A DNA stretch of 64,000 nt from a virus (taxonomy: Duplodnaviria > Heunggongvirae > Uroviricota > Caudoviricetes), in the IMG/VR virus record IMGVR_UViG_3300010367_000170; one strand, written 5' to 3'. The notes below the pieces were generated by a model that saw only the letters and a program-made list of their open reading frames with translations, had not been told where the DNA came from and did not search any database. The translations under genes were made by a program, and so were the position numbers. Numbering within the stretch: position 1 is the first letter of the stretch; each line of letters opens with the position of its first letter. Below are positions 6,647 to 20,520 of this stretch, in pieces.

Positions 6647-6748
6647 CCGGTACGCGCAGTTGAACGCAGGCGTTTCCTTTGGTCCGCCTAAGCGTTCCTT
6701 CGTTGCAGCGGAGTGGATGGGCTGCGCGTACCTCACAACCGAAAACAG

Positions 6749-6821: not shown

Positions 6822-6850
6822 CGCCCAACAAGCTCAACCCGGAGGTTTCT

Positions 6851-7027
6851 GTGTCGAACAGTATGACGCGTCAGCATTTCAAGGCTGTGGCGAACGTGAT
6901 CGCAGCCATTAAGGATCCTGACCAGCGTCGCGAAAGCTGTTACGACGCTATCCGGGAGTTGAGGCAGTTCAACAGCAACTTCAACCGGTCCCGGTTCGAA
7001 GCCGCTTGCGGCCTGAAGGAGGAGTAG
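6851..7027 (+). CDS. Small protein (58 aa)
   Basis: CCGGAGG 5 nt before GTG 6851. The longer listed ORF 6713.. would overlap the tRNA, so the start was trimmed. Confidence 0.45.
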   Translation: MSNSMTRQHFKAVANVIAAIKDPDQRRESCYDAIRELRQFNSNFNRSRFEAACGLKEE

Positions 7028-7293
7028 TGGAGACGGAGACGCACGATCAGATGGTGGTGTTCACGTTGGAGCCCGACGGTTGGTGGGCTACGTGGCTGCC
7101 GGGGCAGGACGGGACGGTGGCTGTTCACGGCGGGAACGGTCCGGTGCCGCAGGAGTCGGAGGAGTTGGTGTCCCTCGGCATCTGGGACGTGTTCGAGACG
7201 GGTCTGGGTGACGACGCGGACGAGGTGGAGGCGGTGTTGAAGTCCGGCGGTTTCCGTGTGGTTTCGCGGGAGTGTAGGACGTTGGACTTGTAG
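7027..7293 (+). CDS. Small protein with HicB-like N-terminal fold signature (88 aa)
   Basis: AGGAGGAG just upstream of GTG 7027. TLEPDGWWATWLPGQDGTVAVHG resembles HicB/UPF0150. Confidence 0.45.
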   Translation: METETHDQMVVFTLEPDGWWATWLPGQDGTVAVHGGNGPVPQESEELVSLGIWDVFETGLGDDADEVEAVLKSGGFRVVSRECRTLDL

Positions 7294-7377
7294 CCTGTTC
7301 GGTGACCTCTCGGTCAGTGGCGAGCCCCAGACGTGACCCCCCGGTTCTGGGGCTTGTTGCTTTTCTCCTCGATGGGC

Positions 7378-7414
7378 TTTACTCCGCTTAGCGATAGGAG
7401 TAACGTTGCCCGCG
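7378..7414 (+). promoter_or_regulatory. Conserved 37-nt upstream element (copy 2) with GTAACGTTGC core
   Basis: TTTACTCCGCTTAGCGAtagGAGTAACGTTGCCCGCG, about 30 nt upstream of ATG 7444. Matches 1017-1053 with a compensatory stem change (TTACTCC/GGAGTAA). Confidence 0.5.
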
Positions 7415-7443
7415 TAAGCTGCCCCGCCATCGAGGAGAAGACG

Positions 7444-8835
7444 ATGAGCACCCGAACCCAACTGACCACCACCCCCGCCACCCTGACCGTCAAGAACCGC
7501 AAGGTCAAGGGCGTCTGCTACAGCGACGGCACCTACAGCATCACGCTGATCCAGATGAAGAGCGACAAGCAGGCGCGGGTCTGCTGGAAGTGCGGCGGCA
7601 CCGGCTACCTGCCCGAATACGGCAACGTGTTCGAAGGCGTCTGCTTCAACTGCAACGGCTCCGGACTCGGCCACGTCTACGACACCAAAGCCAAGGCCAT
7701 GGACGCCGTCCGCCGCAACCTCGCCAAGCAGCGCACCGACACCGCCAAAGCCGAGCAGGCCCGCATCGCCGCCGAAGCCGCCCAGGCCCAGCGTGAGGCC
7801 GCATGGGACGCCTGGCTGCCGGGCAACACCGACGTGGTCGAGTTCGTGGCCGACGCCTACTCCAACGACAGCGTCCCGTTCCTGAACCGCATGCACGAGA
7901 TCCTGTACAACTCCACGCCGCTGTCGGAGAACCAGACGGCGGCCGTGCGGAAGATGATGGCGGAGCAGGACGCGCAGCGGTTCGGCGGGCAGCCCGGCGA
8001 GAAGATCACGTTCACCGGCAAGATCGTGAAGACGTTCTCCGGCGCCTCCGACTACGGGCTGTACTACATGGTCGTCGTGGAAGGTATCGACACCTTCTCC
8101 GGTGTCACCTTCAAGATGACCGGCACCTCCAAGCTGCACATCGAGTTGCAGGACTGCGAAGACGACATAGTCACCATCGCCGCGACCGTGAAGAAGCACG
8201 ACCTGTACAACGGCACCAAGCAGACGGTGATGCTGCGGCCCAAGCTGATCTCCCAGGAGACCCCGGTCACCCCGGAGATGGAGATGCTGGCCGAGACCGG
8301 CGAACCGCAGTGGGCCGGAATCGTGGAAGTCTGCACCTACGGCCACGACACATACGAGGTGTACCCGGTCAACGGCACCGCAGACGCCTGGAAGCTCCTG
8401 ACCGACCTGGACACCTCCCGGAACGTCACCCACGCGGTCATGTACTTCTACGGCGCCGAGTGGCAGTCGATGAGCTTCTACAGCCGGGACTTCAACAAGC
8501 ACGGCAACACCCACGGAAAGCTGTACAACCTGCTGGACGAGAACAACTCCGACTACGCCGTCACCGACTACAAGAGCAGCGGCAAGCCGATGTACCGGCT
8601 GTCGCTGGAGGAGCAGCTGCTGATGAGTCAGTGGCGGGAGGCGTTCGCCGCGCTCCAGATGCACGTGCAGGAGCGTGGGCACGGTACGCACCGCGCCTGC
8701 CAGGTCTCGGGCGTGCAGCGTTGGGGCTGCCCGGAGTGGATCGAGTTGAACAAGCCGGTGGAGGAGCTGGAGAAGAAGATGCAGGAAGCCGATATGGCCG
8801 CCCCGTATGCGGTCTTGGAGCGTCCGGCGCGCTGA
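7444..8835 (+). CDS. Hypothetical protein (463 aa) with DnaJ-type CxxCxGxG zinc-finger pair
   Basis: GAGGAGAAGACG then ATG 7444. CWKCGGTG..CFNCNGSG motif. The listed ORF start 7333 lacks an RBS and overlaps the conserved element. Confidence 0.7.
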   Translation: MSTRTQLTTTPATLTVKNRKVKGVCYSDGTYSITLIQMKSDKQARVCWKCGGTGYLPEYGNVFEGVCFNCNGSGLGHVYDTKAKAMDAVRRNLAKQRTDTAKAEQARIAAEAAQAQREAAWDAWLPGNTDVVEFVADAYSNDSVPFLNRMHEILYNSTPLSENQTAAVRKMMAEQDAQRFGGQPGEKITFTGKIVKTFSGASDYGLYYMVVVEGIDTFSGVTFKMTGTSKLHIELQDCEDDIVTIAATVKKHDLYNGTKQTVMLRPKLISQETPVTPEMEMLAETGEPQWAGIVEVCTYGHDTYEVYPVNGTADAWKLLTDLDTSRNVTHAVMYFYGAEWQSMSFYSRDFNKHGNTHGKLYNLLDENNSDYAVTDYKSSGKPMYRLSLEEQLLMSQWREAFAALQMHVQERGHGTHRACQVSGVQRWGCPEWIELNKPVEELEKKMQEADMAAPYAVLERPAR

Positions 8836-8909
8836 CCAGCTTCGGTAGACCCCGGGGGGTGTCCCCGGGGGACTCCGTGGAAGGCCAGAGCGCTACAAAC
8901 GGAGGGGAG

Positions 8910-9230
8910 ATGCCCAGGAGACGGACGTTAAGGCCGCAGACTGTCCCTTTTGAGGACGGCATGACCGAGGAGGAGAGGCTGCGCTCCTGCGCTTACAAGG
9001 TGCGTCATAGCACGGAGAAAGCCGCAAGGGACGCTTGCGGTAGTGACGTCCACGAGCAATGCGTAATGAACGTGTACCCGTGCCGGTACTGCAAGGGATG
9101 GCACGTAGGACACAGGAGGGGCAGCAAGAAGATCTGCGACCCGCAGAGAGACGAGTTCGACGCCCTGGCTCGGGAGTGGGTCGAGAAGTTCAGTAGCGAC
9201 AACACCGGAGGAGAAGACGATGGACCGTAA
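8910..9230 (+). CDS. Cys-rich small protein (106 aa)
   Basis: ACGGAGGGG then ATG 8910. C-terminal part of junk ORF 7803..9230 has real coding character. Multiple Cys/His. Confidence 0.5.
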   Translation: MPRRRTLRPQTVPFEDGMTEEERLRSCAYKVRHSTEKAARDACGSDVHEQCVMNVYPCRYCKGWHVGHRRGSKKICDPQRDEFDALAREWVEKFSSDNTGGEDDGP

Positions 9231-9732
9231 GAAGGCGCAAGCCGTCCTGAAGGCCGTGGAGTCCAAGTACGCCGAGTGGATCCTGGTCAGTCAGGAGTAC
9301 GGCAGCCAGGACCCGCAGGACTACCCGCAGTTGATGGAGAACTTCAACTACAGCGGTATCGGCCGTCCGGCGCCGTTCGCGGTGGCGTGGGAGTGCAACA
9401 GCCCCGACGACTGGGCGATCAAGTGGCACGGCGACGGCGACAGCAAGGACCCGGAGGGGGTGTTCTGTGAGCCCATCTTCAGCTTCGTGCTCGGAGTCTA
9501 CGACGACGGCGAGTTCGAGTGGGACCGGGTCAAGCGCGGCAGCAAGTTCGTGCACCAGCGCCTGATCACCGAAGACCGCAAACCGGAGACGTGCTACATC
9601 ACGCGCACCCTGAAGCGTGACGGCTCCGTGCGGGAAGTGTTCTACCGGGTTGGTGACCCCAAGACCGGTTTCCTGAACAAGGCGTCGGCGGAGTACTTCT
9701 CCGAGCACGTCGTGAGCTTCTGGGAGGACTGA
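9220..9732 (+). CDS. Hypothetical protein (170 aa)
   Basis: ACCGGAGGAGAAGACG then ATG. Confidence 0.7.
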   Translation: MDRKKAQAVLKAVESKYAEWILVSQEYGSQDPQDYPQLMENFNYSGIGRPAPFAVAWECNSPDDWAIKWHGDGDSKDPEGVFCEPIFSFVLGVYDDGEFEWDRVKRGSKFVHQRLITEDRKPETCYITRTLKRDGSVREVFYRVGDPKTGFLNKASAEYFSEHVVSFWED

Positions 9733-9971
9733 TGCTGTTCTGGATCCGGGACGACAACAGCGGTGGCGACAGTGACACGTGGCTGACCGTCGAGTCCGTT
9801 GATGAGGCCGTGGCCTGGGTGTTCGACACCTGGACAATGCCATCGGTCTGGAAAGGAGTCCCCGTGGGGTTGCTGCCGATCGTCGCCGGTACCAACAGCT
9901 ATGTGTTGTTCGGTGTCACCGGCGATGGCACCTTGGTACCGACCGGCTACCGGATGGAGAAGCAGCGATGA
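9732..9971 (+). CDS. Hypothetical protein (79 aa), ATGA start/stop overlap
   Basis: ATG overlaps upstream TGA. Translational coupling. Confidence 0.5.
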   Translation: MLFWIRDDNSGGDSDTWLTVESVDEAVAWVFDTWTMPSVWKGVPVGLLPIVAGTNSYVLFGVTGDGTLVPTGYRMEKQR

Positions 9972-10093
9972 CTATCCACCTGGGTCGGATGACGCCCGTT
10001 TGGCTCCTGGCCGGTGTCGGCGGCTGCGTCGTCGGCGTTCTCGTACTCCAGTTCCTTTTCGCGCTGTGGATCTTCCGCAAGCGTCGTAAGTGA
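9968..10093 (+). CDS. Small single-pass membrane protein (41 aa)
   Basis: ATGA overlap with the upstream gene. Hydrophobic core WLLAGVGGCVVGVLVLQFLFALWIF then KRRK. Not in the ORF track (short). Confidence 0.4.
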   Translation: MTIHLGRMTPVWLLAGVGGCVVGVLVLQFLFALWIFRKRRK

Positions 10094-10180
10094 TTTCCCT
10101 TGGGCGCAGCCGGGCTTCGGTCCGGCGGCGTCCACAGGAGGTCAAACGGCTTCCGACCCCAGCGAGTAACCGGAGGACAT

Positions 10181-10615
10181 ATGGAAGCGACGATGTTGGA
10201 TTCGTCGTACGGCAAGACGACCGTTGGCGACCTGGACAGAGGCAATCTGAGTCAGTGGTGGATGTTCCGCGCTGACTCCGGCGGCGACACCAACGACACG
10301 TTCGTGGAGGTCACCGTACACTACGACCCTCGCGGGCCGATGAACTGCGACGCCAAGGCTGCCGTGTACAACTACGACACCGGCGAGGAGATTGGCCTGT
10401 TCGCGCTGACGGAGCCGCCATCCAACTGGTGGTCGGAGGTCAACGCCAAGCTGGTCGCCGCGACCGGCAGTGCGCCGTCGCGTTTGTTGACGGTGGCGGA
10501 CAGTCTGAGCAACCGGATGGCCGCGCTGCTGTCGAGGGTGTTCGAGGAGGAAGACGCCTGGGTGCGGACCGACTCCGACGGCGGGGGTGACGAGAAGCAG
10601 AACGTACCGGGGTGA
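10181..10615 (+). CDS. Hypothetical protein (144 aa)
   Basis: ACCGGAGGACAT then ATG 10181. The listed ORF start 10100 has no RBS. Confidence 0.65.
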   Translation: MEATMLDSSYGKTTVGDLDRGNLSQWWMFRADSGGDTNDTFVEVTVHYDPRGPMNCDAKAAVYNYDTGEEIGLFALTEPPSNWWSEVNAKLVAATGSAPSRLLTVADSLSNRMAALLSRVFEEEDAWVRTDSDGGGDEKQNVPG

Positions 10616-10701
10616 CCGCCCCTGGCAGCAACCGGGCTCCGGTTCGGAGGCTGTCATAGGCGGTCACCCGGCTGCTGAACCCAACAGAAAGGAGCCCTGA
10701 C

Positions 10702-10821
10702 ATGGGTAAGAAGGACAAGAAGTCCATCGGTGTCGGCGGTGGAGCGGTTCGCGGCGGCGTAGCTGGCGGCATCCTCGCTGGCGCTATCAACGTCGTCGCG
10801 AAGCTCACCGGCAAGGGGTGA
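10702..10821 (+). CDS. Small Gly-rich protein (39 aa)
   Basis: AAAGGAG 7 nt before ATG 10702. Confidence 0.4.
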   Translation: MGKKDKKSIGVGGGAVRGGVAGGILAGAINVVAKLTGKG

Positions 10822-11003
10822 GGCTTGCTCGTTGCCTGCGGTTCCCGTACGGCGGGAACCGTGGGGAACGGGACAAGCCCGCGCCGGAGGGGAGTGACAT
10901 GAACGATGGCAAGAAGCGGATGAGCTGGCCGACGATGCTGGTTCTGCATCTGTTGGTGTTCGGTATCTGTTTCGTCGGCGCCAAGCTGATGTTGGGGAGG
11001 TGA
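10818..11003 (+). CDS. Small membrane protein (61 aa), GTG start in GTGA overlap
   Basis: GTG 10818 overlaps upstream TGA. C-terminal TM MLVLHLLVFGICFVGAKLML. Alternative start ATG 10899 (GGAGGGGAGTGAC upstream). Confidence 0.4.
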   Translation: MRLARCLRFPYGGNRGERDKPAPEGSDMNDGKKRMSWPTMLVLHLLVFGICFVGAKLMLGR

Positions 11004-11314
11004 GCGGCGTGGCACAGAGGGACACCCGGGAAACCGGATTCGGTGTTGTCTCGGGTGAAATCCAGGCGATCCTCATCGACGCTGAGGGGGACCGCGAGTG
11101 CGGCGCTCACCGGAACTACATGGAGCCGTGGACCGATGAGGAGATGGACGCCTACATCGGCGCCATCAAGGAGGCGAGGGATCTCATCAAGGAGCGGGAC
11201 GACGATACCTTGGCCGTGCGGGAGGCGTGTTCCGACTACGGGAACGATGAGGGGCCGCGCGGGATCCGGCAGCTGTACGCCCGGTACAAGGACCGTATCA
11301 GCAGGCTGCCGTGA
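11000..11314 (+). CDS. Hypothetical acidic protein (104 aa), GTGA-coupled
   Basis: GTG 11000 overlaps the upstream stop. Confidence 0.55.
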   Translation: MSGVAQRDTRETGFGVVSGEIQAILIDAEGDRECGAHRNYMEPWTDEEMDAYIGAIKEARDLIKERDDDTLAVREACSDYGNDEGPRGIRQLYARYKDRISRLP

Positions 11315-11547
11315 AGTCGCAGTGGGGTCACCGGCGCGCCTGGGAGGTGTCCGAGAAGTACCTCAAGGAGCTGACGGACAAGCCTCCGTCGGGTTGCCGC
11401 TGGTGCGGTATCCGCGAGCGTAATCACTGGTGGTTGTGGATCGAGCCGGTTGGTTCGCACGGTTGGGTACCGCCGACGAACGAACAGATCAAGCAGCGCA
11501 TGTGGGAACGGCGGCAAGACCGCGAGACCATCCGGAGGAACAAGTGA
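11311..11547 (+). CDS. Hypothetical protein (78 aa), GTGA-coupled
   Basis: GTG 11311 overlaps the upstream stop. Trp-rich. Confidence 0.55.
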   Translation: MKSQWGHRRAWEVSEKYLKELTDKPPSGCRWCGIRERNHWWLWIEPVGSHGWVPPTNEQIKQRMWERRQDRETIRRNK

Positions 11548-12077
11548 ACATCGACCCGGACAGGATCTATCACCTGGATGCCTTGGGTAAGATCCAGCAT
11601 CTGCTGTTGGGTGAGCAGCGTTGGTTGAAGCAGTTGGAGGGTGACGCCGCCGACGGCTACACCCATGCCGCGAAGGAGGTGGAGCGGCAGAAGGCGATCG
11701 TGGAGTCACTGCGGGATTTGCTGGACGGAGCGAGGGAACGGCGGATGCTGGCGACGTGTCGGTGGGTCCTCAACGGGGCTGCCGCTGCGCGCGTAGCAGA
11801 CAAGGAGAAGTACTCGTGGGCCGGATTGCCGGAGGAGAAGGCTACGGCCGTACGGGCAGCGATAGATGCCGGGAAGGTGCTGCGGACGGCGCACCGGGCG
11901 GCGAGGTACGGGGTGGACACGGATCTGCGGATGACTGAGTTCACGGACCCTGAGCTGGGTCAGCGCTGGGCGGTGCTGGTGACTATGGGCCGGTCCGAGA
12001 GGTACCTGACCGATCACCCCACCCGGTTCGACGCCGACACCCGGTTCGACGGGCTGCTGACGGCTGCGGGCGGGTAG
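11544..12077 (+). CDS. Hypothetical protein (177 aa), GTGA-coupled
   Basis: GGAGGAA 3 nt before GTG 11544, overlapping upstream TGA. The listed ORF start 11430 overlaps the previous gene. Confidence 0.6.
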   Translation: MNIDPDRIYHLDALGKIQHLLLGEQRWLKQLEGDAADGYTHAAKEVERQKAIVESLRDLLDGARERRMLATCRWVLNGAAAARVADKEKYSWAGLPEEKATAVRAAIDAGKVLRTAHRAARYGVDTDLRMTEFTDPELGQRWAVLVTMGRSERYLTDHPTRFDADTRFDGLLTAAGG

Positions 12078-12119
12078 CGGTAGGATGGGAGGACACCTCC
12101 ACGGCGAGTAACCCGTAAA

Positions 12120-12157
12120 CCGGAAGCCCCCTGATCTTCTCCTCAGGGGGCTTCCGG
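12120..12157. terminator. Bidirectional terminator CCGGAAGCCCCCTGA-tcttctcc-TCAGGGGGCTTCCGG then TTTTGTTG
   Basis: Perfect 15-bp stem between convergent genes 11544..12077(+) and 12166..12459(-), with a T-tract. Confidence 0.75.
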
Positions 12158-12165
12158 TTTTGTTG

Positions 12166-12459
12166 CTATGCCTGGTCGGTCGGGTCAGACGGCGTCAGCG
12201 TCAGGGCCGTGGCGGCGCCGCCAACGACGTCGAAGCTGAGCGTGCCGGTCAGTCCGTTCGGGTCGGCTGCGGTAATGGTGATACCCACCTCCGGGTTACC
12301 GGCCACGACCGTGACCTTCAGGGTGGTCTCGTCATCCACGTTGACGACGGTGCCGCCGGTGGAGGAAGAGGTCCAGGTCAGCTGGTCTGGGACGTCGTTG
12401 CCCTTGGAGTCCTTGGCCTCGACGTTGATGTCGAACTGCTGGTTGTCTACGATCTGCAT
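12166..12459 (-). CDS. Bacterial Ig-like (Big_2-type) domain protein (97 aa)
   Basis: AGGGGAGAG RBS before ATG. Beta-rich T/V/G sequence TLKVTVVAGNPEVGITITAADPNGLTGTLSFDVV. Confidence 0.6.
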   Translation of the reverse strand: MQIVDNQQFDINVEAKDSKGNDVPDQLTWTSSSTGGTVVNVDDETTLKVTVVAGNPEVGITITAADPNGLTGTLSFDVVGGAATALTLTPSDPTDQA

Positions 12460-12696
12460 GTCTCTCCCCTATCAGGGCTGCGGTACTGGTGGGCTTACAA
12501 CGAGTACGAGTTCAGCCGGGCCGGTTTGGAGCCAAGAGAAAATCTTGACGGCGCTGGCCAGGACCTCGTCTGTGAGCATGCCAGGGTTGATCTGGTGGCA
12601 GCTCATCTGAGACAGGCGCACTGCGTAGTCAAGCGCCACGGCCCGCAGTTCGGCTTCGGTCATATAAGCCAAAGTAGCCGATGGGGAGCGGGGAGG

Positions 12697-12870
12697 CTAA
12701 ACGGCGGGGGTGTCTTTCTTGTTGAGGGCTTCGTCCAGTTCCCCGTTCTTGACGGCCTTCAGGAACTGGATGAACTCTTCTCGGGTGAACTCCAGCTCGT
12801 TGTCTGGGTTGGCGGAGTTTCGGACGGTGAAGACCTGTTCGATGCTGTGCCAGCCGACTTGAACGGACAC
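12697..12870 (-). CDS. DUF397-like small protein (57 aa); not in ORF track
   Basis: GAGGAGTAA RBS then GTG (plus 12870-12868). VSVQVGWHSIEQVFTVRNSANPDNELEFTREEFIQFLKAVKNGELDEALN matches the C-terminal DUF397 pattern (vRdS.dP.gp.L.FT..EW.aFl.gvK.GEfD). High GC3. Confidence 0.55.
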   Translation of the reverse strand: MSVQVGWHSIEQVFTVRNSANPDNELEFTREEFIQFLKAVKNGELDEALNKKDTPAV

Positions 12871-12873
12871 GTG

Positions 12874-13110
12874 TTACTCCTCAGCGTTGAGGTCGTAGGT
12901 GATCTTCGCCTCCGAGGAGGGGTCGAAGGTTTGGGCCGTCATCTGCTTCATCAGGTCGGTGGACGTGATCGAATTAGCCAGCTTCGACCTGAGCATGTGC
13001 TCCATGCCCTTCTGTTCGATAGGCGTCATACGGTCCCAGTCTTCCTTGGCGACGGACTCCACCAGCGTATAGACCTTGCTGCCCACCAGCAGGGCGGCTG
13101 CGATTCTCAT
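12874..13110 (-). CDS. Hypothetical protein (78 aa)
   Basis: ATG 13110 one nt after the upstream TGA (coupled). The N-terminal 39 aa of listed ORF 12874..13227 overlap the HNH gene out of frame and look non-coding. Confidence 0.5.
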   Translation of the reverse strand: MRIAAALLVGSKVYTLVESVAKEDWDRMTPIEQKGMEHMLRSKLANSITSTDLMKQMTAQTFDPSSEAKITYDLNAEE

Positions 13111-13111
13111 G

Positions 13112-13597
13112 TCATTCGTCGTCAAGGGGGGTCTCCGGTCTGATGGTGGGGAGTTTGGTGCCATCCGGCCGCAGGAAACACCAGCCGGTGGCGAGTTTGA
13201 TGGGCACAGTCTCCGGGTCGGCGGCACGGTTCACGATGAACCCGGTAGTGACCGCTGACTGCCGGAACCTCTCGACTGCGGTGTGGCAGCCGTCGGGGGT
13301 GGTGGCGGAGCCGCACAGCATCACCAGGTTGGACGGGGAGTTGGCTTGGGGGTCTCGGGTACCGCCCATGCCTCGCGGCTTGCGGTGGTGGACGCTGTAG
13401 GCGCCGGTGATGGTTTTCCCGCAGCGTTCACACGCTCCTGCGGCGCGTTCGGCAATGGTGCGGCGGACGGCGGGGGTGGGGCCGGTGTTGCGGGGCGGAC
13501 GTGGTTTCGTCTCACCGCGCTTCAGTTCCCTTGCGGGGGACATGCCTTTGGTGGCGGCGAGGGGGGTCTTACGGGTCAGAGGGCTGCGTTTCACCAC
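13112..13597 (-). CDS. HNH endonuclease
   Basis: CERCG..HHRKPRGMGG..NLVMLCGSATTPDGCH is an HNH/zinc motif. GGAGAAAAAGTGAC then ATG. Confidence 0.8.
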   Translation of the reverse strand: MVKRSPLTRKTPLAATKGMSPARELKRGETKPRPPRNTGPTPAVRRTIAERAAGACERCGKTITGAYSVHHRKPRGMGGTRDPQANSPSNLVMLCGSATTPDGCHTAVERFRQSAVTTGFIVNRAADPETVPIKLATGWCFLRPDGTKLPTIRPETPLDDE

Positions 13598-13965
13598 GTC
13601 ACTTTTTCTCCGAGCGCTGCCGCTTCCAGGGAGCGCTGGAACTTACACCGGACTTCCTCAACCCAGGCTTGATGGTTCTCGACTTCGCATTCAGCGCAGC
13701 GGAGACGCCAGTACCCGAACAGGCGCAGGTTGAAGGAGCTGTACGGGTCGTAGTGCTTGGGGCAGTAGCGGCTGGAGAACTTGTCGTACAACTCCTCCAA
13801 CGCCTGATCCTTAGCCTTGTGGGCGCTGGAGGCGTGCCGTCCGGTCCCTTGCAGACCGGACGGCACGTGGGTGATGCGGACCGCGACGTTAGGGACGTCA
13901 GGGCCCAGAATCATGACCGCTCCGCTGCGGTAGATGTCTATCCGCAGGTCCTGTTCCCGTATCAC
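13591..13965 (-). CDS. RF-1 (peptide chain release factor) domain-like protein lacking the GGQ motif
   Basis: DLRIDIYRSG.[11 aa].AVRITHVPSG..SAHKAKDQALEEL aligns to RF1/RF2 [42 protein letters not shown]. The equal-length GGQ loop is replaced by AVMILGPDVPN. Coupled to neighbours by 4-7 nt overlaps. Confidence 0.55.
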   Translation of the reverse strand: MIREQDLRIDIYRSGAVMILGPDVPNVAVRITHVPSGLQGTGRHASSAHKAKDQALEELYDKFSSRYCPKHYDPYSSFNLRLFGYWRLRCAECEVENHQAWVEEVRCKFQRSLEAAALGEKVTW

Positions 13966-14222
13966 GGGGCGTCTTGCCGGTTGCTCCGGAGTGCGCTCCG
14001 GCAGGCTTCCGCGTGCTTCCGGACAGAGTCGGGGCGGGCAGCGCGTCCCCGGGGAGGGGGGACGCTGTCCGTCGGTAGCGGGATACGCCAGCCGGAGCGG
14101 CGCAGCCCGTACACGAGCCTGTCGGCTTTGTCGTCGGCGTAGGGCAGGTTCCAGTTGTGGAACTGTTCTTCCAGGGTGTTGCGCAGGTTGGCCCAGCGGG
14201 CTTCCTCAGCGAGGGAAGTCAT
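13962..14222 (-). CDS. Hypothetical protein (86 aa)
   Basis: AAGAGGAGGGGG RBS then ATG. Confidence 0.6.
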   Translation of the reverse strand: MTSLAEEARWANLRNTLEEQFHNWNLPYADDKADRLVYGLRRSGWRIPLPTDSVPPPRGRAARPDSVRKHAEACRSALRSNRQDAP

Positions 14223-14628
14223 CAGGCACCCCCTCCTCTTTGCGTGCTTCTACGAGGAGTTCCCCGAATTCCAGGGGATGACGCTGCCGCAGGCGTGCGT
14301 ATGCGGAATAGCGTGCGCGGTCTACGGCTCGCCGGATCTCGACGCGTCCGGCGTGGGTGTCGTAGAACTCGCGGACGCGTCGCGTCTCGGATTCGAGGTA
14401 CTGGACTCCCAGTGCCTCGATGTTGCCGACACGGCGTTGCCTCATGTATTCACGCTGACATACTTTGCAGTTGCTGCGGTAGCGTCCGCGCGGTGCGTCG
14501 GAAGGGCGCTGGCCTGCGCGCGGCTTGTAGCGCTGGAAATGAAACTCGGACAGGAGTTTCACCTCCCCGCATTGGCTGCACTTCTTGCGGCCGTCGGGGA
14601 ACTGTTCGGTGATCTCTTCCGGGGTCAT
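14206..14628 (-). CDS. Zinc-ribbon protein (140 aa)
   Basis: AGGAGACAAC RBS then ATG. CSQCG...CKVC. Confidence 0.6.
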   Translation of the reverse strand: MTPEEITEQFPDGRKKCSQCGEVKLLSEFHFQRYKPRAGQRPSDAPRGRYRSNCKVCQREYMRQRRVGNIEALGVQYLESETRRVREFYDTHAGRVEIRRAVDRARYSAYARLRQRHPLEFGELLVEARKEEGVPDDFPR

Positions 14629-14691
14629 TTAGTTGTCTCCTAGGGGATCGGGTTTCCCCACACTTCGTCCCCTAGGGTATCCGATACTCCG

Positions 14692-15210
14692 TTACTCCGG
14701 TAGCGGTTGATCTTCAGTCTGGCCCATACCGCTACCCTCGGTCCTGTCGCGTTGTCTGCGGGAAAGCCACCATCGGCGCGGGCGGGGGACGTCGTCGTTG
14801 ACTTCTTTCGCGGTCACGGCCGGTACGTTACGTCCGACAGCGGCCAGCGGAATACCCTCCGGCGGAGGCTTCCCCGGTACTGGATCGGCTTCCCAATGTC
14901 CGTTGCGCAAAGCTTTGATGAATGCGCGCGGGTCGTCAGGGTCGGCGTCAGGGACGCGGGTGCGGGTCGCTGTGTCTTCTTTGGGTTTGCGGGCTGCGGA
15001 CAATACCCGCACCCCGGCACGGATCTTCGATGGAGACAGTGGCCTGTCGGACTCGGAGAAGTGGGCGGTGACCACGGCCTTGGCGTCGTCAAAGTCCACT
15101 TCGTGGAGCAGCTGGTACCAGGCTTCGACTTCGGCCTGAGATACGCCATCCGGGCGCCTCTCGTACACGTAGATAGCACTCAGCAGGAACGCCACCTGGG
15201 TTTTGGTCAC
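14692..15210 (-). CDS. Hypothetical protein (172 aa), downstream of the O-like initiator (possible replication partner)
   Basis: GGAGGAC RBS then ATG 15210, adjacent to the upstream stop. Confidence 0.6.
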   Translation of the reverse strand: MTKTQVAFLLSAIYVYERRPDGVSQAEVEAWYQLLHEVDFDDAKAVVTAHFSESDRPLSPSKIRAGVRVLSAARKPKEDTATRTRVPDADPDDPRAFIKALRNGHWEADPVPGKPPPEGIPLAAVGRNVPAVTAKEVNDDVPRPRRWWLSRRQRDRTEGSGMGQTEDQPLPE

Positions 15211-15414
15211 TCAGTCCTCCGACTGGTTCTTGAGGTTGTTGATCTCCCTGTTGGCCTGCCAGATCTCCCGGAGATGGAGTTCTACGGCTCCGAGGAACAG
15301 TTCGGCCATGAGTCCCCTGTCGGCTTCGGCTTCCCTGGCCAATTCGGCAACGGTGGATTCCAGTCTGCGAATGGACCGGTACCGTGCCGCCTGCCAGTCC
15401 TCCAGGGTGTTCAC
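15211..15414 (-). CDS. Small coiled-coil protein (67 aa), GTGA-coupled
   Basis: GTG 15414 overlaps TGA of the upstream gene. The first 52 aa of listed ORF 15211..15570 overlap the upstream gene and look non-coding. Confidence 0.45.
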   Translation of the reverse strand: MNTLEDWQAARYRSIRRLESTVAELAREAEADRGLMAELFLGAVELHLREIWQANREINNLKNQSED

Positions 15415-16919
15415 CAGCTGGGTCCGATCTCCTTGAGGCCGCCGTTGCCGAGTTCCTGCTGGCGGTAGTGCTCTACCGTCTGCATGTTCTGGCGGAACGC
15501 GTCGTCGGCGCGGGAGCGGACTTGCGGGGCCTGTTCTGGGTCGTCGTCCCAGCGTTCCTGGTTGAGCCACACGGACGGGTGGGGGGTGAACTGGATCTCC
15601 TTGCCGATCATCTGGCAGGTGTTGGCGTAGCTGGCTGCGGCTTCGATGATGCGGTGGGCGGGGGTGCCCTTGGCGACGGCGGCAAGGAAGGCTTTGCGGG
15701 CGGCTCCCTTGCCGGTGCGGCGCGGGTAGTAGTGCCAGAAGGTGTCGAAGTCTTGTTCGTTGTTCTGCTTCAGCGGGGCGGGGGCTGCGGGGAAGGCGAA
15801 CAGGGAGCCGTCGGCGGGGGCTTCTGTGTTGGGGTCGGACAGGAGGAGGTGTCCGGGGACGTTGTGGATCTTGCCGGTGTCGGCGAGGGTGTTGATCCAG
15901 TTGGAGATGTCAGTGGGGGTGATGTCGTCGTCGTAGCGGAAGAGTTCCGCTTTGAGGTAACGCGTATCGGAGACGATCATGGAGGCGGTGTCTGCGAGGC
16001 TGCGAAGCCCCAGGTAGAACAGCCGGATGCCGATGGGGAGGGTTCCCAGGGCAGGGTCGGTGAACGGTGTCATCGCGGCTCTTTCGGTAGTGCGTGGGGA
16101 ATACGTTACCGCGATCTTTGCCTCAACGGGAAGATCGCTTCCGGGCTGGCAAACCGCCGGAGAAACCTCCTCCCGCACTCCTCCGGCACCACTCACCTTA
16201 CGAGGCACGGCAAGCCCCAAGAGGCGCCTAGCAAAGCCCCTAGCCACCCTCCTGGTGGTCCTCCGGTCCGCAGCCGGTCCGGCCCCAACCGGCAACAAGC
16301 CCAAGTGAGGTTCCCGCCTAGCGCTACCCGTAGGCTCCGGACCTGCTTCTGGTCCGGTCTTCATCGGCAAAGCCGATGGATAGATATCTGCGCGCGGCTC
16401 TCCTTGAGAGTTGTCTTCACAAAGCGAGCCGCTAGACCTGTTGTCGCTAGTAAAACCACCGGTCTGTAGATGGTATACGTAATTTTGGCTCTGACCTGCG
16501 TAAACGTCCTCCTGCGGCTCCCACTCCGGATCTTGTTCCTGAGCCTCACGCCAAGCCTGCTCCCGCGCCTCCGAAACCTCCTCCGGCAACGGACACTCCG
16601 GGGTCCCCCCAAGCCGGTACTTCACTACCGGCCGTCTCCGGTCGCAGGGAGCCTCGCCGTCTTGGAGTATGAGCCGGAGGTCACGGAGCTTCCGCAGAGC
16701 CTTCTCGACAGCGCTACGGCTGTAGGAAACCCGCTCCTGAATCCAGGAGATACACAACCGGAACCGATCCCACATAGACCGGCGTGTCCACGACGCGACC
16801 ACGTACAACACCGACGTCTCGCAGCCCGACAAGCCATAGAACTCGGCAGTGTCGGCAGCCCACGCAACAGCGAATTCGTTACTTCCATCAAGCAGGGGCT
16901 TGGACCGGTGGCTCCGCAT
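15411..16919 (-). CDS. Lambda-O-like replication initiator candidate: N-terminal winged-HTH, low-complexity linker, C-terminal conserved domain (502 aa ORF)
   Basis: N-terminal ISWIQERVSYSRSAVEKALRKLRDLRLI is a wHTH. C-terminal FWHYYPRRTGKGAARKAF..WLNQERWDDD has very high GC3. The middle ~140 codons have low GC3 and contain an AT-rich stretch plus iteron-like motifs. An internal ATG at 16073 could alternatively start a separate 221-aa product. Confidence 0.5.
   Translation of the reverse strand: MRSHRSKPLLDGSNEFAVAWAADTAEFYGLSGCETSVLYVVASWTRRSMWDRFRLCISWIQERVSYSRSAVEKALRKLRDLRLILQDGEAPCDRRRPVVKYRLGGTPECPLPEEVSEAREQAWREAQEQDPEWEPQEDVYAGQSQNYVYHLQTGGFTSDNRSSGSLCEDNSQGEPRADIYPSALPMKTGPEAGPEPTGSARREPHLGLLPVGAGPAADRRTTRRVARGFARRLLGLAVPRKVSGAGGVREEVSPAVCQPGSDLPVEAKIAVTYSPRTTERAAMTPFTDPALGTLPIGIRLFYLGLRSLADTASMIVSDTRYLKAELFRYDDDITPTDISNWINTLADTGKIHNVPGHLLLSDPNTEAPADGSLFAFPAAPAPLKQNNEQDFDTFWHYYPRRTGKGAARKAFLAAVAKGTPAHRIIEAAASYANTCQMIGKEIQFTPHPSVWLNQERWDDDPEQAPQVRSRADDAFRQNMQTVEHYRQQELGNGGLKEIGPSW
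16099..16490. promoter_or_regulatory. Putative intragenic origin-like region (iteron-like CGCTAG/CCTAGC repeats, GAATACGTTACCGCG motif, AT-rich GGTATACGTAATTTTGG)
   Basis: Low GC3 in the host ORF frame. Five or more copies of (C/G)CTAGC within about 230 bp. AT-rich block at 16472-16490. Analogous to lambda ori inside gene O. Confidence 0.3.
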
Positions 16920-17075
16920 CAGCTACGTTGTACCTATCTGTTTGGACCAACACTCAGATACACACCTATTGGCCGTCGGGACGGATGACCTGGTGTAGCG
17001 ACAAAGGTTCCTTGATCTCGGACCTTCAGCGCGTCGGAGCCCCATGGTGCAGGATCACCGGGGGCTCCAAACTTT

Positions 17076-17411
17076 TCACGAGCCTATCTGCGGCACGACC
17101 CCCGGGTAAAGCCGCCCACGACCTGGCCTAAGACGCCTGGGAACTTCAACAACGAGGTCAGATGGGCGCCACACCGCCGTTTCGATCCCAGCTGAAGCCA
17201 GAACCCGCAGCCAAAGCTTCTGGTCCTCTGTCAACCGACCTGTCGCAGACTTCAACTCCGCGAACAGGACACGCCGCTGCCGCTCATTCAGCAGGATCAG
17301 GTCAGGGCAGCCGCGAGCGCTGACTCTCCGAGAGTCAGGAACGTGATAGGCGATCCACCCGAACCTCTCAGCCAGCTCCATCACCGCCGTCTGCAACTGC
17401 GCCTCCGTCAT
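17076..17411 (-). CDS. VRR-NUC domain nuclease
   Basis: MTEAQLQTAVMELAERFGWIAYHV...GCPDLILL..FAELKSATGRLTEDQKLWL fits the VRR-NUC consensus. The N-terminal 56 aa of the listed ORF look non-coding. Confidence 0.7.
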   Translation of the reverse strand: MTEAQLQTAVMELAERFGWIAYHVPDSRRVSARGCPDLILLNERQRRVLFAELKSATGRLTEDQKLWLRVLASAGIETAVWRPSDLVVEVPRRLRPGRGRLYPGVVPQIGS

Positions 17412-17664
17412 CGCCGGAGTACGCGGCAAGGAGTTCCTTGACGATGTCCTTACCGCTGGGCTCCCGGTCCTCGTTTTCCTCCCACCGGTCAACGTCCCAC
17501 TCCTCACACGATTCCGCATCCCGCTCTGGCGACTCCACCCGTTCCCGCTGCACCGCATCCAGGCCCCAGTAGCGCACAAGAAAAGCGGCAGCCTTCCGCT
17601 GCCGCGCCAACCGGCGCCGGTAGTGGAAGGCTGCTCTGCTCTCGCCTACTCGCTGTCGATCCAC
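17368..17664 (-). CDS. Acidic hypothetical protein (98 aa)
   Basis: Fills the 234-nt gap between paralog C and VRR-NUC. Moderate GC3. No clear RBS. Overlaps both neighbours. Confidence 0.3.
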   Translation of the reverse strand: MDRQRVGESRAAFHYRRRLARQRKAAAFLVRYWGLDAVQRERVESPERDAESCEEWDVDRWEENEDREPSGKDIVKELLAAYSGDDGGAVADGGDGAG

Positions 17665-18083
17665 CCCATGAAGTATGCAGTGAACCCCAGGAACAGGCTG
17701 ATCACCTCAACGGCGGTGTCCCAGCCGCCACGCTCCATCACGTCCTCCCACACCGCCTGGACGCGAGCGCCGTCACCGTCTTCCATAGCGAACAACAGCC
17801 CGCAGAACGCTCCCCGGCTACGCGGATCCTCCACCGGGGCGTCCGCGATGTTCAACGCCATGTTCTCGATGAGGCGGTGGACATTGGACTGTCCGTGGGC
17901 CTCCCGCGCCCAGGAGTGCCAGATACCCATCATCATCGGCAGCAGATGCGGCCGGTCCTGATAGACGTCGCACGCCAGACGCGTCAACAGCTCCATGTCG
18001 TCTTCACCGGCGATACGCAGGAACTCGCGCGCAAGACGGTCAGCGTCGGCTACAGCCTGGTTGACCGCCTCCTCATTGATCAC
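17646..18083 (-). CDS. Paralog C of a tandem triplicated family (146 aa), GTGA-coupled
   Basis: GTG 18083 overlaps TGA of paralog B. Shares W-rich core (IWHSWARE) and C-terminal SLFLGF motif with B and A. Confidence 0.45.
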   Translation of the reverse strand: MINEEAVNQAVADADRLAREFLRIAGEDDMELLTRLACDVYQDRPHLLPMMMGIWHSWAREAHGQSNVHRLIENMALNIADAPVEDPRSRGAFCGLLFAMEDGDGARVQAVWEDVMERGGWDTAVEVISLFLGFTAYFMGWIDSE

Positions 18084-18538
18084 TCCCGTACCGCGTTCGC
18101 GAACAAGCTGCCGAACATGGACGACATCAAGGTCATCACCTCCCAGGCGACCGGCCAACCGTCCTGCTGGTCCACGACCCGCGCCCACGCCTTCGTGGAC
18201 TTGACCGGGCTGCGGTCCTGCATTCCGTACAGCATGTCGCAGATCACCGCCCTTGACGAGGATTCCTGCAAGGGAGCGCCAGCGATGTTGGAGGTGACCT
18301 GTAACACCGCAGCTTCGGCGGAGGTCTTGCCGCACAGGTTCGCGGCGATGTCGTACCAGATGGCGAAGGCGGTCGGGACCACATCCTTGTGCTCTTCCCA
18401 GACGTACCGGGCAGCCTTGTCGAAGTCGGGGTGGTTCTGCATCGACATGTCCAGCAGGGTGTTGGCGACGCTCGCCGCGCGCACCATGAAGTCCTGGTAT
18501 TCGCGCATAGCGCGCCTACGCTTCCGGTTCTCGAACAC
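18080..18538 (-). CDS. Paralog B of the tandem family (152 aa)
   Basis: GTG 18538, 3 nt after TAA of paralog A. AIWYDIAANL ... SMFGSLFANAV. Confidence 0.45.
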   Translation of the reverse strand: MFENRKRRRAMREYQDFMVRAASVANTLLDMSMQNHPDFDKAARYVWEEHKDVVPTAFAIWYDIAANLCGKTSAEAAVLQVTSNIAGAPLQESSSRAVICDMLYGMQDRSPVKSTKAWARVVDQQDGWPVAWEVMTLMSSMFGSLFANAVRE

Positions 18539-18541
18539 CCC

Positions 18542-19024
18542 TTACTCGCAGTCGGCGGAGGCGGAGGGTGGGGCCAGGACGCTGCGGGCGAAGCCAAGGA
18601 ACACGGACGCGACGTCCACGGTGAGGTCTTCGTCTGGCGCTACTGTCCGCATCCACATCTCGGTGAACCGTTCGTGTTCGTCCTGGGACAGATGCAGCAT
18701 CAGACCGCGTCCGAAGCTCAACGGCAGGCCCTGCCGCCTGTACTCCTCGTGGGGCATGTCCTTGTTGAGGTTGTCCAGTTGCGTCTGGAGCTTCTGCGCG
18801 ACGATACGAGCGGCCTGCGTGGTAGCGGTGCTGCCGCGTTCTCCCTGGCACATCTGGTACCAGATGACGATGGTACGGCCCAGGGTGGCGCGGTCGGATT
18901 CCCTCAGCAGCCGGTTGACTTCGGTGAGGTTTTCCATGTCGTTGTGAGCGAGGAGGGTGACGGCGAGGATACCGGCGGGATCCTCCATACGCGTCTCAGC
19001 GGCCTTGTTGTGTTCGTTCTCCAC
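18542..19024 (-). CDS. Paralog A of the tandem family (160 aa)
   Basis: ACGGAGGAAAC then GTG 19024. The longer listed ORF to 19123 has no RBS. IVIWYQMCQ ... SVFLGFARSV. Confidence 0.45.
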   Translation of the reverse strand: MENEHNKAAETRMEDPAGILAVTLLAHNDMENLTEVNRLLRESDRATLGRTIVIWYQMCQGERGSTATTQAARIVAQKLQTQLDNLNKDMPHEEYRRQGLPLSFGRGLMLHLSQDEHERFTEMWMRTVAPDEDLTVDVASVFLGFARSVLAPPSASADCE

Positions 19025-19141
19025 GTTTCCTCCGTTTTTGAGAAGCGGTAACCGGGCTATACGATACTCTACGAACTCGCCGCCGAAACCGGACGGCACG
19101 CCACCCATGAACACCCCTGTCACCTACCGGAGGGAACAACC

Positions 19142-19774
19142 ATGAACCTCAAGCGCCGTCTCGCGACGGCCACCGCCGTCGGCGTCACTGCCGCCACGCT
19201 CACCGCGTGCGCCGACCACCACCACGTCGTGGCCGTACCGCAGACCAACGCCGTCGCCTACGCTCCCCCGTACCTCGGGGAAAACGGCATGTGCTACTAC
19301 GTGGACAGCCCCGGCGAAGTGGCCAACCTCATCGCCGGTGGCCTGTGCCAGCCGGGCTGGCGCCCCGTCGTGATGCCGCTGGATTGGCACTACCGCTACG
19401 CCGACTACATCGCCTCCCCGGCGTACTACAACGTGTACGCCCTCCCCGGAGACCGGGGCGGATGGGGCCGCCAGTGGGGTACCCAGTCCACGTTCTACAC
19501 CACCAACATCACCATCATCCACGCCAAGGAGAAGACCGCCACCTACAAGGGCAGCGACGGCAAGACCGTCACCGGCAACATCACCACCTTCGCCCCGCCC
19601 AAGACCAAGGCGCCGACGTCCGCGCCGCTGCCCGCCGGAGCCCGCTCCTCCGCGCCGCTGCCGGTCGGCGGCGCCCGCTCCACCGCTCCGGCTCCGGCAG
19701 CGTCCACGGCCAAGCCCTTGTCCGGCGGAGGTGCCCGCAGCAATCCGGCGCCTCCGAGGGTGAGCGCACGCTGA
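19142..19774 (+). CDS. Secreted lipoprotein (signal peptide plus lipobox LTAC)
   Basis: CCGGAGGGAACAACC then ATG. MNLKRRLATATAVGVTAATLTAC. Pro/Ala-rich C-terminus. Confidence 0.7.
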   Translation: MNLKRRLATATAVGVTAATLTACADHHHVVAVPQTNAVAYAPPYLGENGMCYYVDSPGEVANLIAGGLCQPGWRPVVMPLDWHYRYADYIASPAYYNVYALPGDRGGWGRQWGTQSTFYTTNITIIHAKEKTATYKGSDGKTVTGNITTFAPPKTKAPTSAPLPAGARSSAPLPVGGARSTAPAPAASTAKPLSGGGARSNPAPPRVSAR

Positions 19775-20184
19775 TGGCCTCCTGGGAACGTTCCATCGCC
19801 CACAAGACGTGGGTGGAGGTGAGCATCAACACTCCCTGCTTCAGCGGCGACCTGTATGCCGCCTCCTCCGAGGCGCGTACGCAGTACTACAAGCACAAGG
19901 GACAGGTGCCCGACTCCGACGACGCGTTCGAGATCCTGACCGGCGACGACAAGATCACCATCCGGTTCGAGACCACCGAAAAGCGCGTTGCACAGCTGAA
20001 CGACACCATCCAAGCCGACCAGCTGAGACGCGCCACAGAACTCCTCGCCGCCATCGCCACCGACTGCGTCGGCAACAAGTCCGGATACTGCACGGTACAC
20101 AGCCGCTACGACGCGAATGACAACTGCTACCACGCCCTGGCCCGCGACTTCCTGACCAACCTGGAGGAGAACCCCTATGCCTGA
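19774..20184 (+). CDS. Hypothetical protein (136 aa), ATGA-coupled
   Basis: ATG 19774 overlaps upstream TGA. Good coding in frame. Confidence 0.6.
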   Translation: MASWERSIAHKTWVEVSINTPCFSGDLYAASSEARTQYYKHKGQVPDSDDAFEILTGDDKITIRFETTEKRVAQLNDTIQADQLRRATELLAAIATDCVGNKSGYCTVHSRYDANDNCYHALARDFLTNLEENPYA

Positions 20185-20464
20185 CGAGATCACCCCCTGG
20201 TGGACCGTCGTCGGCTGCTGGCCCGACCTGAACGACATCAACCGTTCCCAGCGGTGGATGGACAACTACCAGGCCGTGACCCCGCAGCTGGCAGAGGACA
20301 TGGCCCGGTTCGAAGCCCAGCAGGGATGGACCGCGTCCGGCCGCCCCGGTGACGCCCTGTTCATCGTGACCGGCGTGTTCCCCGGCAAGCACTCCTCTGC
20401 CGACGCCACGTACGCCTACTATGCCGACCCCGGTATCCCTGCCCCGCAGACGCTGCCGGAATAG
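20177..20464 (+). CDS. Hypothetical protein (95 aa)
   Basis: GGAGGAGAACCCCT then ATG. Confidence 0.6.
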   Translation: MPDEITPWWTVVGCWPDLNDINRSQRWMDNYQAVTPQLAEDMARFEAQQGWTASGRPGDALFIVTGVFPGKHSSADATYAYYADPGIPAPQTLPE

Positions 20465-20520
20465 CAACAAAGGGCACGCCTGGGGGAATGGCCTGGGCGT
20501 GCCCGACTTCAGGAGAACGC

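Follow-up and report, generated by a model that had tools for sequence, protein, structure and literature searches.

A release-factor domain without the GGQ motif, joined to a Cys/His module, in a Caudoviricetes genome

Introduction

The peptidyl-tRNA hydrolase domain of bacterial release factors (RFs), domain 3 of RF1 and RF2, normally carries a catalytic Gly-Gly-Gln (GGQ) loop. The most complete survey of RF evolution lists only RF1, RF2, ArfB and PrfH for Bacteria, all of them with the glutamine, and never mentions phages (PMC6514570). Here we describe a gene in a 64,000-nucleotide stretch of viral DNA (IMG/VR record IMGVR_UViG_3300010367_000170, Caudoviricetes; the whole stretch is called the window below) that encodes an RF-like domain in which the GGQ loop is replaced by other residues and which is joined to a module with conserved Cys and His residues. 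An initial annotation, made from the sequence alone, had singled out this gene as a GGQ-less RF homologue. The gene very probably encodes a catalytically dead copy of RF1/RF2 domain 3, with its scaffold kept and its GGQ loop replaced, fused to a partner module.

Several described systems invite comparison. RF1 and RF2 share with the window protein about 63 gapless residues of domain 3, including DLRIDxYR, VRITHxP(S/T)G and the helix SxxKxKxQAL. In contrast to them, the window protein lacks GGQ, the HVN, T-D-S, CQ and SQ..N positions, and domains 1, 2 and 4; since these domains are absent, it would not be expected to read stop codons. ArfB (YaeJ) and ICT1 keep both GGQ and a basic tail, whereas the window protein has a neutral Cys/His module instead, and ArfB needs its basic C-terminal tail for ribosome binding (PMC3950681). 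The operons of PrfH (RFH) and RtcB keep GGQ, a codon-recognition-like domain, and zinc-ribbon and Pol-beta nucleotidyltransferase accessories. No gene for RtcB or an RNA ligase was present among the neighbour genes examined near the window gene.

The catalytic glutamine has also been lost elsewhere. MRPS35 has lost it and is a structural mitoribosomal protein (PMC6514570), and the plant chloroplast protein PrfB3 has lost both SPF and GGQ and stabilises petB mRNA (PMC5897788). Both resemble the window protein in this loss, but they are eukaryotic, organellar and non-viral, have other flanking domains, and show no specific sequence relationship to it. Dom34/Pelota and the bacterial baeRF-1 families belong to the archaeo-eukaryotic RF superfamily, which is unrelated to the bacterial one. 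In Dom34 and most baeRF-1 families the glutamine is missing and loop length is free to vary; these proteins were proposed to block the peptidyl-transferase site, and to serve as A-site binders without catalytic activity or to regulate translation negatively (PMC6514570). The pattern is the same as in the window protein (glutamine lost, loop free, basic residues kept), but the fold of Dom34/Pelota and baeRF-1 is RNase H-like, and the likeness is consequently analogous and not homologous.

Results and Discussion

The gene and its relationship to RF1/RF2 domain 3

The open reading frame (ORF) lies exactly where the initial annotation placed it, with a GTG start at 13965 and a TGA stop at 13591-13593 on the minus strand, with an intact frame of 124 codons (Table 1). 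The frame is equally intact in five orthologues of 52-98% identity, all of them metagenomic, and the N-terminus MIREQDLRID is kept in orthologues P0001-P0005. An independent metagenome contig (L001) is 99.955% identical to the window over 4450 bases and carries a single non-synonymous codon difference in the gene, A45S. The gene is under purifying selection, with a gene-wide ratio of non-synonymous to synonymous substitution rates (dN/dS) of about 0.2-0.4.

Residues 3-63 aligned without gaps with residues 230-290 of Escherichia coli RF2 (E 1.4e-6, phmmer against PDB). The profile of PHROG 20323, 'RF-1 domain peptide chain release factor', matched at E 8e-12, with residues 1-65 on profile positions 1-64 of 73, and NCBIfam prfA matched at domain level at E 1.6e-7. 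Homology to the peptidyl-tRNA hydrolase domain of RFs, as the initial annotation had proposed, is borne out by these matches. Its suggested check against the Pfam RF-1 model (PF00472) came out less cleanly: the model did match at E 0.001, but the score of 19.4 bits fell under the gathering score of 35, and orthologue P0003 scored 15.5 bits. When 1.84 billion proteins were searched with a profile, 1099 matched at E <= 0.001, and of the 150 matches listed almost all were RF-domain proteins. The domain has the fold of RF domain 3, a three-stranded sheet followed by a helix (beta-beta-beta-alpha).

The initial annotation had aligned the product with RFs and with ArfB alike. The likeness is of the RF1/RF2 type, in that VRITHxPSG is kept, but not of the ArfB type, given the lack of a basic C-terminal tail and of any ArfB family match. 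None of the described families can be taken as the identity of the protein as a whole. RF1 and RF2 were rejected on length (124 amino acids only, covering model positions 219-283) and on scores of 30.6 and 24.9 bits against cutoffs of 423 and 370. PrfH was rejected on a TIGR03072 score of 13.4 bits against a cutoff of 166.65 and on the absence of GGQ and of a codon-recognition domain. ArfB/ICT1 was set aside for the lack of GGQ and of an ArfB model match, for a C-terminal part with an isoelectric point (pI) of 6.9, and for a THxP(S/T)G motif of RF1/RF2 type.

Loss of GGQ and of the wider catalytic signature

In the gapless RF2 alignment the eleven residues AVMILGPDVPN stand in place of the GGQ-loop stretch of RF2, and the equal-length substitution read by the initial annotation is thus confirmed; the GGQ column itself falls on M18-I19-L20 (window positions 13906-13914). 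No frame of positions 13561-14000 encodes GGQ, and the L001 contig shows the same loop. All five close homologues lack GGQ as well, so that the loss, whose conservation among orthologues the initial annotation had left to be checked, is conserved. Two sequence types of the loop occur among the orthologues, with dN/dS of 0.04-0.09 within a type and 0.4-1.8 between types, values that come from 13 codons and small numbers. Estimated by the Nei-Gojobori method, dN/dS was 0.22-0.48 in the domain core and 0.12-0.25 in the C-terminal module. Model confidence (predicted local distance difference test, pLDDT) is lower at the loop, with block means of 67-74.

A column-by-column comparison of 217 GGQ-containing with 38 GGQ-less domains revealed that the loss extends beyond the motif. 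In the GGQ-less set GGQ itself is at about 0%, against 100% in the other. 'HVN' has lost its V and N, which 96-98% of the GGQ-containing domains carry, and T-D-S before AVR is not kept: 7% have the T and 21% the S, compared with 95% of GGQ-containing domains. Conservation of the glutamine is reduced from 99% to 18% in 'CQ' and to 28% in 'SQ', and that of the asparagine in 'NK' from 99% to 47%. Across the class the loop differs in length by more than 10 residues and holds no conserved polar residue. In contrast, DLRIDxYR and VRxTHxP(T/S)G remain 76-100% conserved in the GGQ-less set (Y12 73%), and the basic positions R8, R13, R30, K52 and K62 are 73-99% conserved. The initial annotation had taken the catalytic loop as the part that was lost; GGQ is indeed gone, but the loss is wider, since the HVN, T-D-S, CQ, SQ and NK positions are relaxed too. 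Because the scaffold motifs are kept while the catalytic signature and the loop length are relaxed, catalysis appears to have been given up and the scaffold to be still in use. As judged from these residues, the window protein is almost certainly not a hydrolase.

A rare Cys/His module, fused to the domain or encoded beside it

The block-by-block alignment of the initial annotation spanned the 124-residue product. It holds for residues 3-63, but residues 67-124 constitute a separate module that had gone unrecognised. In the profile search of 1.84 billion representatives, positions 1-63 matched RF domains and positions 64-161 matched proteins with the second part only. Searches of the module against Pfam, PHROG, PADLOC and PDB matched no family, including no known zinc-finger family, and the module is very rare (7 clusters among 5.8 billion). 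C68, C90 and C93 are invariant in an alignment of 13 sequences, and the His is present in 13 of 13, with the spacing C-x-H rather than C-x2-H in two of them. This C-x(1,2)-H...C-x2-C arrangement is a putative zinc site. The region is modelled with low confidence (block means 53-69, residues 82-86 below 50). The pI of the module is 6.0-7.0, neutral to acidic; the C-terminal part of the window protein has a pI of 6.9 and a charge of about 0.

The module is fused to a GGQ-less RF-like domain in the window and in loci L002-L004. It is a gene of its own in L009, L010, L011/L012, L050 and L051, where a GGQ-less RF-like gene lies immediately upstream or at most about 600 bp away, and it occurs as stand-alone proteins P0006-P0010, P0018, P0107, P0134 and P0154. 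Consequently, all nine distinct module loci carry a GGQ-less RF-like domain, either fused or nearby. The RF-like genes of the split loci are recognised independently by hidden Markov models with E-values of 1.4e-6 to 7e-17, and L051 carries two of them. Since the two parts are fused in some loci and separate nearby genes in others, the RF-like domain and the module probably act together as one unit, a reading drawn from gene arrangement. The fusion in the window, set against a separate neighbour gene in sister phages, predicts a two-protein complex.

Two divergent types of GGQ-less RF-like gene exist in this clade (L051 40-372 and 539-811; L009 5561-6001; L011 5235-5615; L050 488-757). One is near-canonical (MISEEDLRID...VRITHLPTG); the other is highly degenerate (...AEDLxVE...ITHKPTGIxVEGH), with an N-terminal extension that is basic. 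Both types are found in L051, upstream of its module gene. GGQ-less RF domains are also joined to other Cys-rich, zinc-finger-like segments in independent fusions: L038/L039 from IMG/VR have a C-terminal CxCxxC...CxCxxC, P0076 has CxC...CxxC, and phiCD27 gp66 (L017 1354-1695) has an N-terminal Cys cluster. In view of these fusions, the pairing of an RF domain with a zinc-type module recurs.

GGQ-less RF domains in other phages

Small RF-domain genes are widespread in phages. Searches by tblastn with two distant GGQ-less proteins found them in 167 and 139 deposited phage records, under annotations such as 'RF-1 domain peptide chain release factor', 'peptide chain release factor 1' and 'putative peptidyl-tRNA hydrolase'. 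GGQ was missing in all eight of the proteins that were read out: Pseudomonas phage PA16b gp036, Acinetobacter phage KARL-1 gp136, Vibrio phage 1.187.O gp097, Mycobacterium phage Phabba gp2, phiPsa300 gp006 (Pseudomonas), Clostridioides phage phiCD27 gp66, Rhizobium phage IC12 CDS0030 and a protein of Xanthomonas phage NR08. Four of the eight pass the Pfam RF-1 threshold with 41-58 bits. Because the residues for the hydrolysis chemistry are missing in these eight proteins, the labels 'peptide chain release factor' and 'peptidyl-tRNA hydrolase' in phages of Acinetobacter, Pseudomonas, Mycobacterium, Clostridioides, Vibrio, Xanthomonas and Rhizobium hosts are probably wrong. A scan of IMG/VR confirmed 30 loci, 17 without GGQ, 12 with GGQ and one truncated, with a query biased towards GGQ-less forms. 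Further small phage members are listed in BFVD, and three metagenomic members that were examined stand in clear phage contexts. Members of the class are present in the cultured phages Phabba, KARL-1, phiPsa300 and PA16b.

Small phage 'release factors' (PHROG 20323, 3122, 32571 and 35727) have the same minimal core as the window protein at or near the N-terminus, with variable loops and no GGQ in the eight read out, and other GGQ-less small proteins match PHROG 20323 too. They differ from the window protein, to which they are about 30-45% identical, in lacking the C-x2-H...C-x2-C module; their C-terminal additions are none, like the bL12 C-terminal domain, or unknown. The pI of small GGQ-less proteins ranges from 5.5 (acidic) to 10.3 (basic).

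The phiPsa300 protein gp006 (L007 1486-1878, NC_073687.1), annotated 'peptide chain release factor 1', has GGM for GGQ and a C-terminus like the C-terminal domain of bL12 (Pfam PF00542 E 1.5e-5, 25.6 bits against a cutoff of 25.9; PDB 1dd3 E 3.6e-4). Phabba gp2 (L016 692-1072) overlaps the start of gp3 (1059-1910), a Pol-beta nucleotidyltransferase of the RNA-repair family RlaP (PF10127 E 1.2e-22), an overlap that points to a setting of RNA repair or ribosome rescue for part of the class. A 139-amino-acid protein of ArfB-like length in L040 (IMG/VR UViG_3300010373_000002, match 3001-3201) reads GPGGRHRN, with GGR for GGQ in an otherwise canonical loop. Finally, a shared C-terminal domain (DKFAAMMKAKLA...GWDDPE...) occurs without GGQ in L023 and with a non-canonical GGAVGGQ loop in L030/L032 (IMG/VR), which hints at repeated, recent loss of the motif.

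The initial annotation knew of no GGQ-less RF domains described in phages. Full-text literature searches indeed found no paper describing them, and a survey of jumbo phages does not mention them (PMC7824862). Such genes are nevertheless common in deposited phages, labelled as release factors. The domain belongs to a known family whose GGQ-less phage members are already in databases under misleading names. What is new here is the recognition that the whole catalytic signature is lost, the divergent soil-phage clade, and the link by fusion and fission to a rare Cys/His module with a conserved HNH neighbour.

A possible role on the ribosome

To our knowledge, every characterised protein with an RF domain acts on or in ribosomes, with the exception of the mRNA-binding PrfB3. 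Because of this, and because of the inactive precedents, the basic scaffold positions that are kept and the translation links of other phage members, our analysis leads us to favour, tentatively, a non-catalytic factor that would bind the ribosome or ribosomal RNA (rRNA) at or near the A site of the large subunit. One type of mycobacterial tRNA array also counts an RF-1-domain gene among its core genes (PMC5966550). Together with the bL12-like stretch of the phiPsa300 protein and the RlaP overlap of Phabba, this gene hints at a link between other phage members and the translation apparatus.

In such a mechanism the scaffold would dock on large-subunit RNA near the A site and the peptidyl-transferase centre without hydrolysing peptidyl-tRNA. 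Early in infection the protein would modulate translation without catalysis, perhaps by competing with release or rescue factors or by marking or parking ribosomes. A second contact would come from the Cys/His module, more likely with protein than with RNA since the module is not basic. Both ribosome binding and any effect on translation are steps that we infer. If ribosome binding is true, these proteins would constitute a new phage way of manipulating termination or ribosome rescue, and would offer naturally occurring, catalytically dead probes with which to study the A site and peptidyl-transferase centre.

A number of points weigh against ribosome or rRNA binding. Binding of ArfB to the ribosome depends on its basic C-terminal tail and not on the GGQ domain (PMC3950681), and the window protein has no ArfB-type tail and a module pI of 6.0-7.0. 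Several of the positions lost along with GGQ are possible rRNA contacts, and the ancestral docking mode may have gone with them. The spread of pI from 5.5 to 10.3 among small GGQ-less proteins argues against a uniform, strong RNA binder. Furthermore, the local neighbours are genes of DNA metabolism (replication initiator, VRR-NUC, endonuclease VII-like and HNH, with a single-stranded DNA-binding protein, SSB, in L003).

A broader form of the proposal is possible, though we hold it doubtful: GGQ-less RF domains at large would be a widespread phage class that docks at the A site or peptidyl-transferase centre without hydrolysis, stalling or shielding ribosomes or redirecting termination or rescue. 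Their variable, often hydrophobic or aromatic loops would be combined with interchangeable partners (zinc modules, a bL12-like domain, RlaP neighbours). They would act during infection or under attack by RNase effectors of the host, and the window gene would be a fused version of a two-component system.

Among the rivals, the one that survives best, unlikely as we consider it, is a nucleic-acid-binding accessory unrelated to ribosomes, in which a scaffold like a double-stranded RNA-binding domain (dsRBD) and a zinc module would work with the HNH or with replication and recombination genes. In its favour, RF-like gene, module and HNH follow one another with overlapping stop and start codons at seven of the eight loci that extend far enough downstream, the surrounding genes are those just named, and PrfB3 offers a precedent of a domain repurposed for mRNA binding (PMC5897788). 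Cys-rich fusions to GGQ-less RF domains that arose independently several times (L038/L039, P0076, phiCD27 gp66) would also fit. However, the motifs that are kept are specific to RFs and not to dsRBDs, and the module lacks basic character. The neighbourhood is weak evidence, since unrelated functions are mixed in early phage operons, and in other phages the domain lies beside genes of translation or RNA repair and not beside nucleases.

A protein decoy is quite improbable. Here a mimic of domain 3 would titrate a host protein, for example the PrmC methyltransferase or a component of a defence system or toxin that targets RFs. The surface motifs of the domain 3 core are conserved while the catalytic loop is free. 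The loop is kept within subclades and switches between them, as would be seen for a surface that co-evolves with a partner, and small accessory proteins of this kind occur in phages across many host groups. However, the target of PrmC is the Gln of the GGQ motif, which the window protein does not have. We know of no defence system that targets RFs, and the PADLOC-DB defence models did not match the window protein, P0003 or P0007.

It is very improbable that the protein is an active peptidyl-tRNA hydrolase or RF that uses different catalytic residues, even though relatives are annotated as such and several of them score above the Pfam RF-1 gathering cutoff. Neither the glutamine nor either glycine of the motif is present, loop length varies across the class by more than 10 residues with no conserved polar residue, and there is neither a codon-recognition domain nor an ArfB-type tail; against NCBIfam cutoffs of 370-423 the protein reaches 25-31 bits. 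A functionless, decaying remnant of a captured RF gene, or a miscalled ORF, is hardly credible at all: the Pfam score does lie under threshold and a C-terminal tail was lost by recombination, but dN/dS is well below 1 in both parts, the start is conserved and coupled to the stop of the preceding gene, all five orthologues of 52-98% identity keep the frame intact, tail-less forms are natural as stand-alone genes (P0018, P0154), and the class recurs in phages of many host groups. The remaining probability falls to an explanation not yet imagined.

Neighbouring genes and a mosaic gene copy

Coordinates of the gene, its parts, its neighbours and other genes of the window are collected in Table 1. 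The gene caller based on GC content at third codon positions (GC3) is unreliable in the 12-17 kb block, and homology and synteny were used there instead. The GTG of the RF-like gene overlaps the TGA of the upstream 86-amino-acid gene by 4 nt (GTGA), and its 3' end overlaps the start of the HNH gene by 7 nt, its own TGA lying within the first codons of HNH. These overlaps render plausible the translational coupling that the initial annotation had proposed for an operon with the HNH nuclease and a DUF397-like gene, but the DUF397-like gene lies two genes downstream of HNH and its match is weak.

Table 1. Features of the window discussed in the text, with positions counted from its first letter.
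Feature	Position	Strand	Basis
GGQ-less RF-domain protein fused to Cys/His module	13591..13965	minus	complete coding sequence, 124 amino acids and stop (ORF list)
RF1/RF2 domain-3-like fold, residues 1-66	13768..13965	minus	strands 7-13, 27-33, 39-44; helix 48-66
Loop in place of the catalytic GGQ loop, residues 14-26 (SGAVMILGPDVPN)	13888..13926	minus	gapless RF2 alignment; no GGQ in any frame
Cys/His module, residues 67-124, then helix 91-117	13594..13767	minus	stand-alone homologues, 13-sequence alignment, dN/dS 0.12-0.25
Putative zinc ligands	C68 13762-13764, H71 13753-13755, C90 13696-13698, C93 13687-13689	minus	alignment
Recombination junction	13585..13692	minus	blastn and tail identity
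HNH endonuclease gene, 161 amino acids	13112..13597	minus	Pfam HNH E 9e-5; PHROG 740 E 1.5e-33
Conserved 86-amino-acid gene	13962..14222	minus	TGA overlaps GTG of RF-like gene
140-amino-acid Cys-rich endonuclease VII-like protein, upstream, same operon	14206..14628	minus	PHROG 1035 E 5.7e-11
57-amino-acid DUF397-like ORF	12697..12870	minus	Pfam DUF397 E 5e-4, 20.7 bits against cutoff 24
Replication initiator	15411-16919	minus	
VRR-NUC	17076-17579	minus	
RecT-like protein	25077-26078	plus	
Tape measure protein	43112-46537	minus	
Major head protein	59443-60822	minus	
tRNA-Val(CAC)	6575-6648	plus	
tRNA-Ile(TAT)	6749-6822	plus	

Module loci share a common order: replication initiator, small genes, 140-amino-acid Cys-rich protein, 86-90-amino-acid protein, module, HNH. 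A homologous HNH follows the module in L004, L009, L010, L011, L050 and L051. Of the eight loci whose sequence reaches far enough downstream, seven (the window included) have HNH after the module, and L003 has SSB instead. HNH is therefore a conserved neighbour and not a chance insertion. A sporadic homing insertion that truncated the RF-like gene was considered and rejected, given that HNH follows the module in six other loci whether the tail is present or not. Homologues of the upstream gene, of 86-90 amino acids, occur in L003, L004, L009, L010, L011 and L050; the window copy matched no Pfam or PHROG family. The gene of the 140-amino-acid Cys-rich protein is syntenic in L010 and L011 and shows 66-84% nucleotide similarity to six related loci. 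Its product also matches a 'Lar-like restriction alleviation protein' PHROG (E 5.9e-6).

The fused orthologues carry an extra tail of about 40 amino acids (RPSEDTPE...WVRKY) that the window protein does not have. The 5' three-quarters of the window gene are 80-84% identical in nucleotides to the fused orthologues, while the 3' end and HNH are like those of the unfused L009 lineage. Similarity to the fused orthologues L002/L003 stops near 13650 by blastn, and the segment from 13692 to 13585 resembles the boundary of stand-alone module and HNH in L009. Of the last 20 amino acids, 15 are identical to P0154 (L009) and 7-10 to P0002-P0004. On this pattern of similarity, the window copy is a mosaic with a recombination breakpoint within the gene. 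A frameshifted or displaced tail was rejected as an explanation: a tblastn search with the tail of the orthologues gave nothing significant in the whole window, and recombination explains the loss. Because tail-less modules occur naturally (P0018, P0154), the short form is no evidence of decay.

Genome context

The window belongs to a large siphovirus-like phage genome whose GC content is 63%. Its lineage appears unsampled among deposited genomes: a 10-kb megablast against INPHARED gave no match, the major head protein found none by tblastn at 1e-10 among 50,697 phage records, none was confirmed in GTDB genomes scanned with the fused protein and the 140-amino-acid neighbour, and a scan of IMG/VR with the fused protein returned none. 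The window protein and its clade were thus not found in INPHARED, IMG/VR or GTDB genomes. An actinobacterial host is suggested by the 63% GC and the weak DUF397 match alone.

At the end of the early operon, a 97-amino-acid ORF (12166-12459, minus strand) shows a weak match to a bacterial Ig-like domain (Big_9, E 0.005); it is present in L001, and L011 has a region of 72% nucleotide similarity. GC3 differs between strand blocks, at about 0.8-0.94 in the plus-strand blocks 1-12100, 17900-35900 and 51200-58300 (several genes above 0.9) and about 0.70-0.80 in the minus-strand blocks 12100-17600 and 35800-51300, a contrast that could reflect mosaic origin or differences in expression class. The tRNA-Ile(TAT) reads AUA, a codon expected to be rare at 63% GC, and codon 2 of the RF-like gene is ATA.

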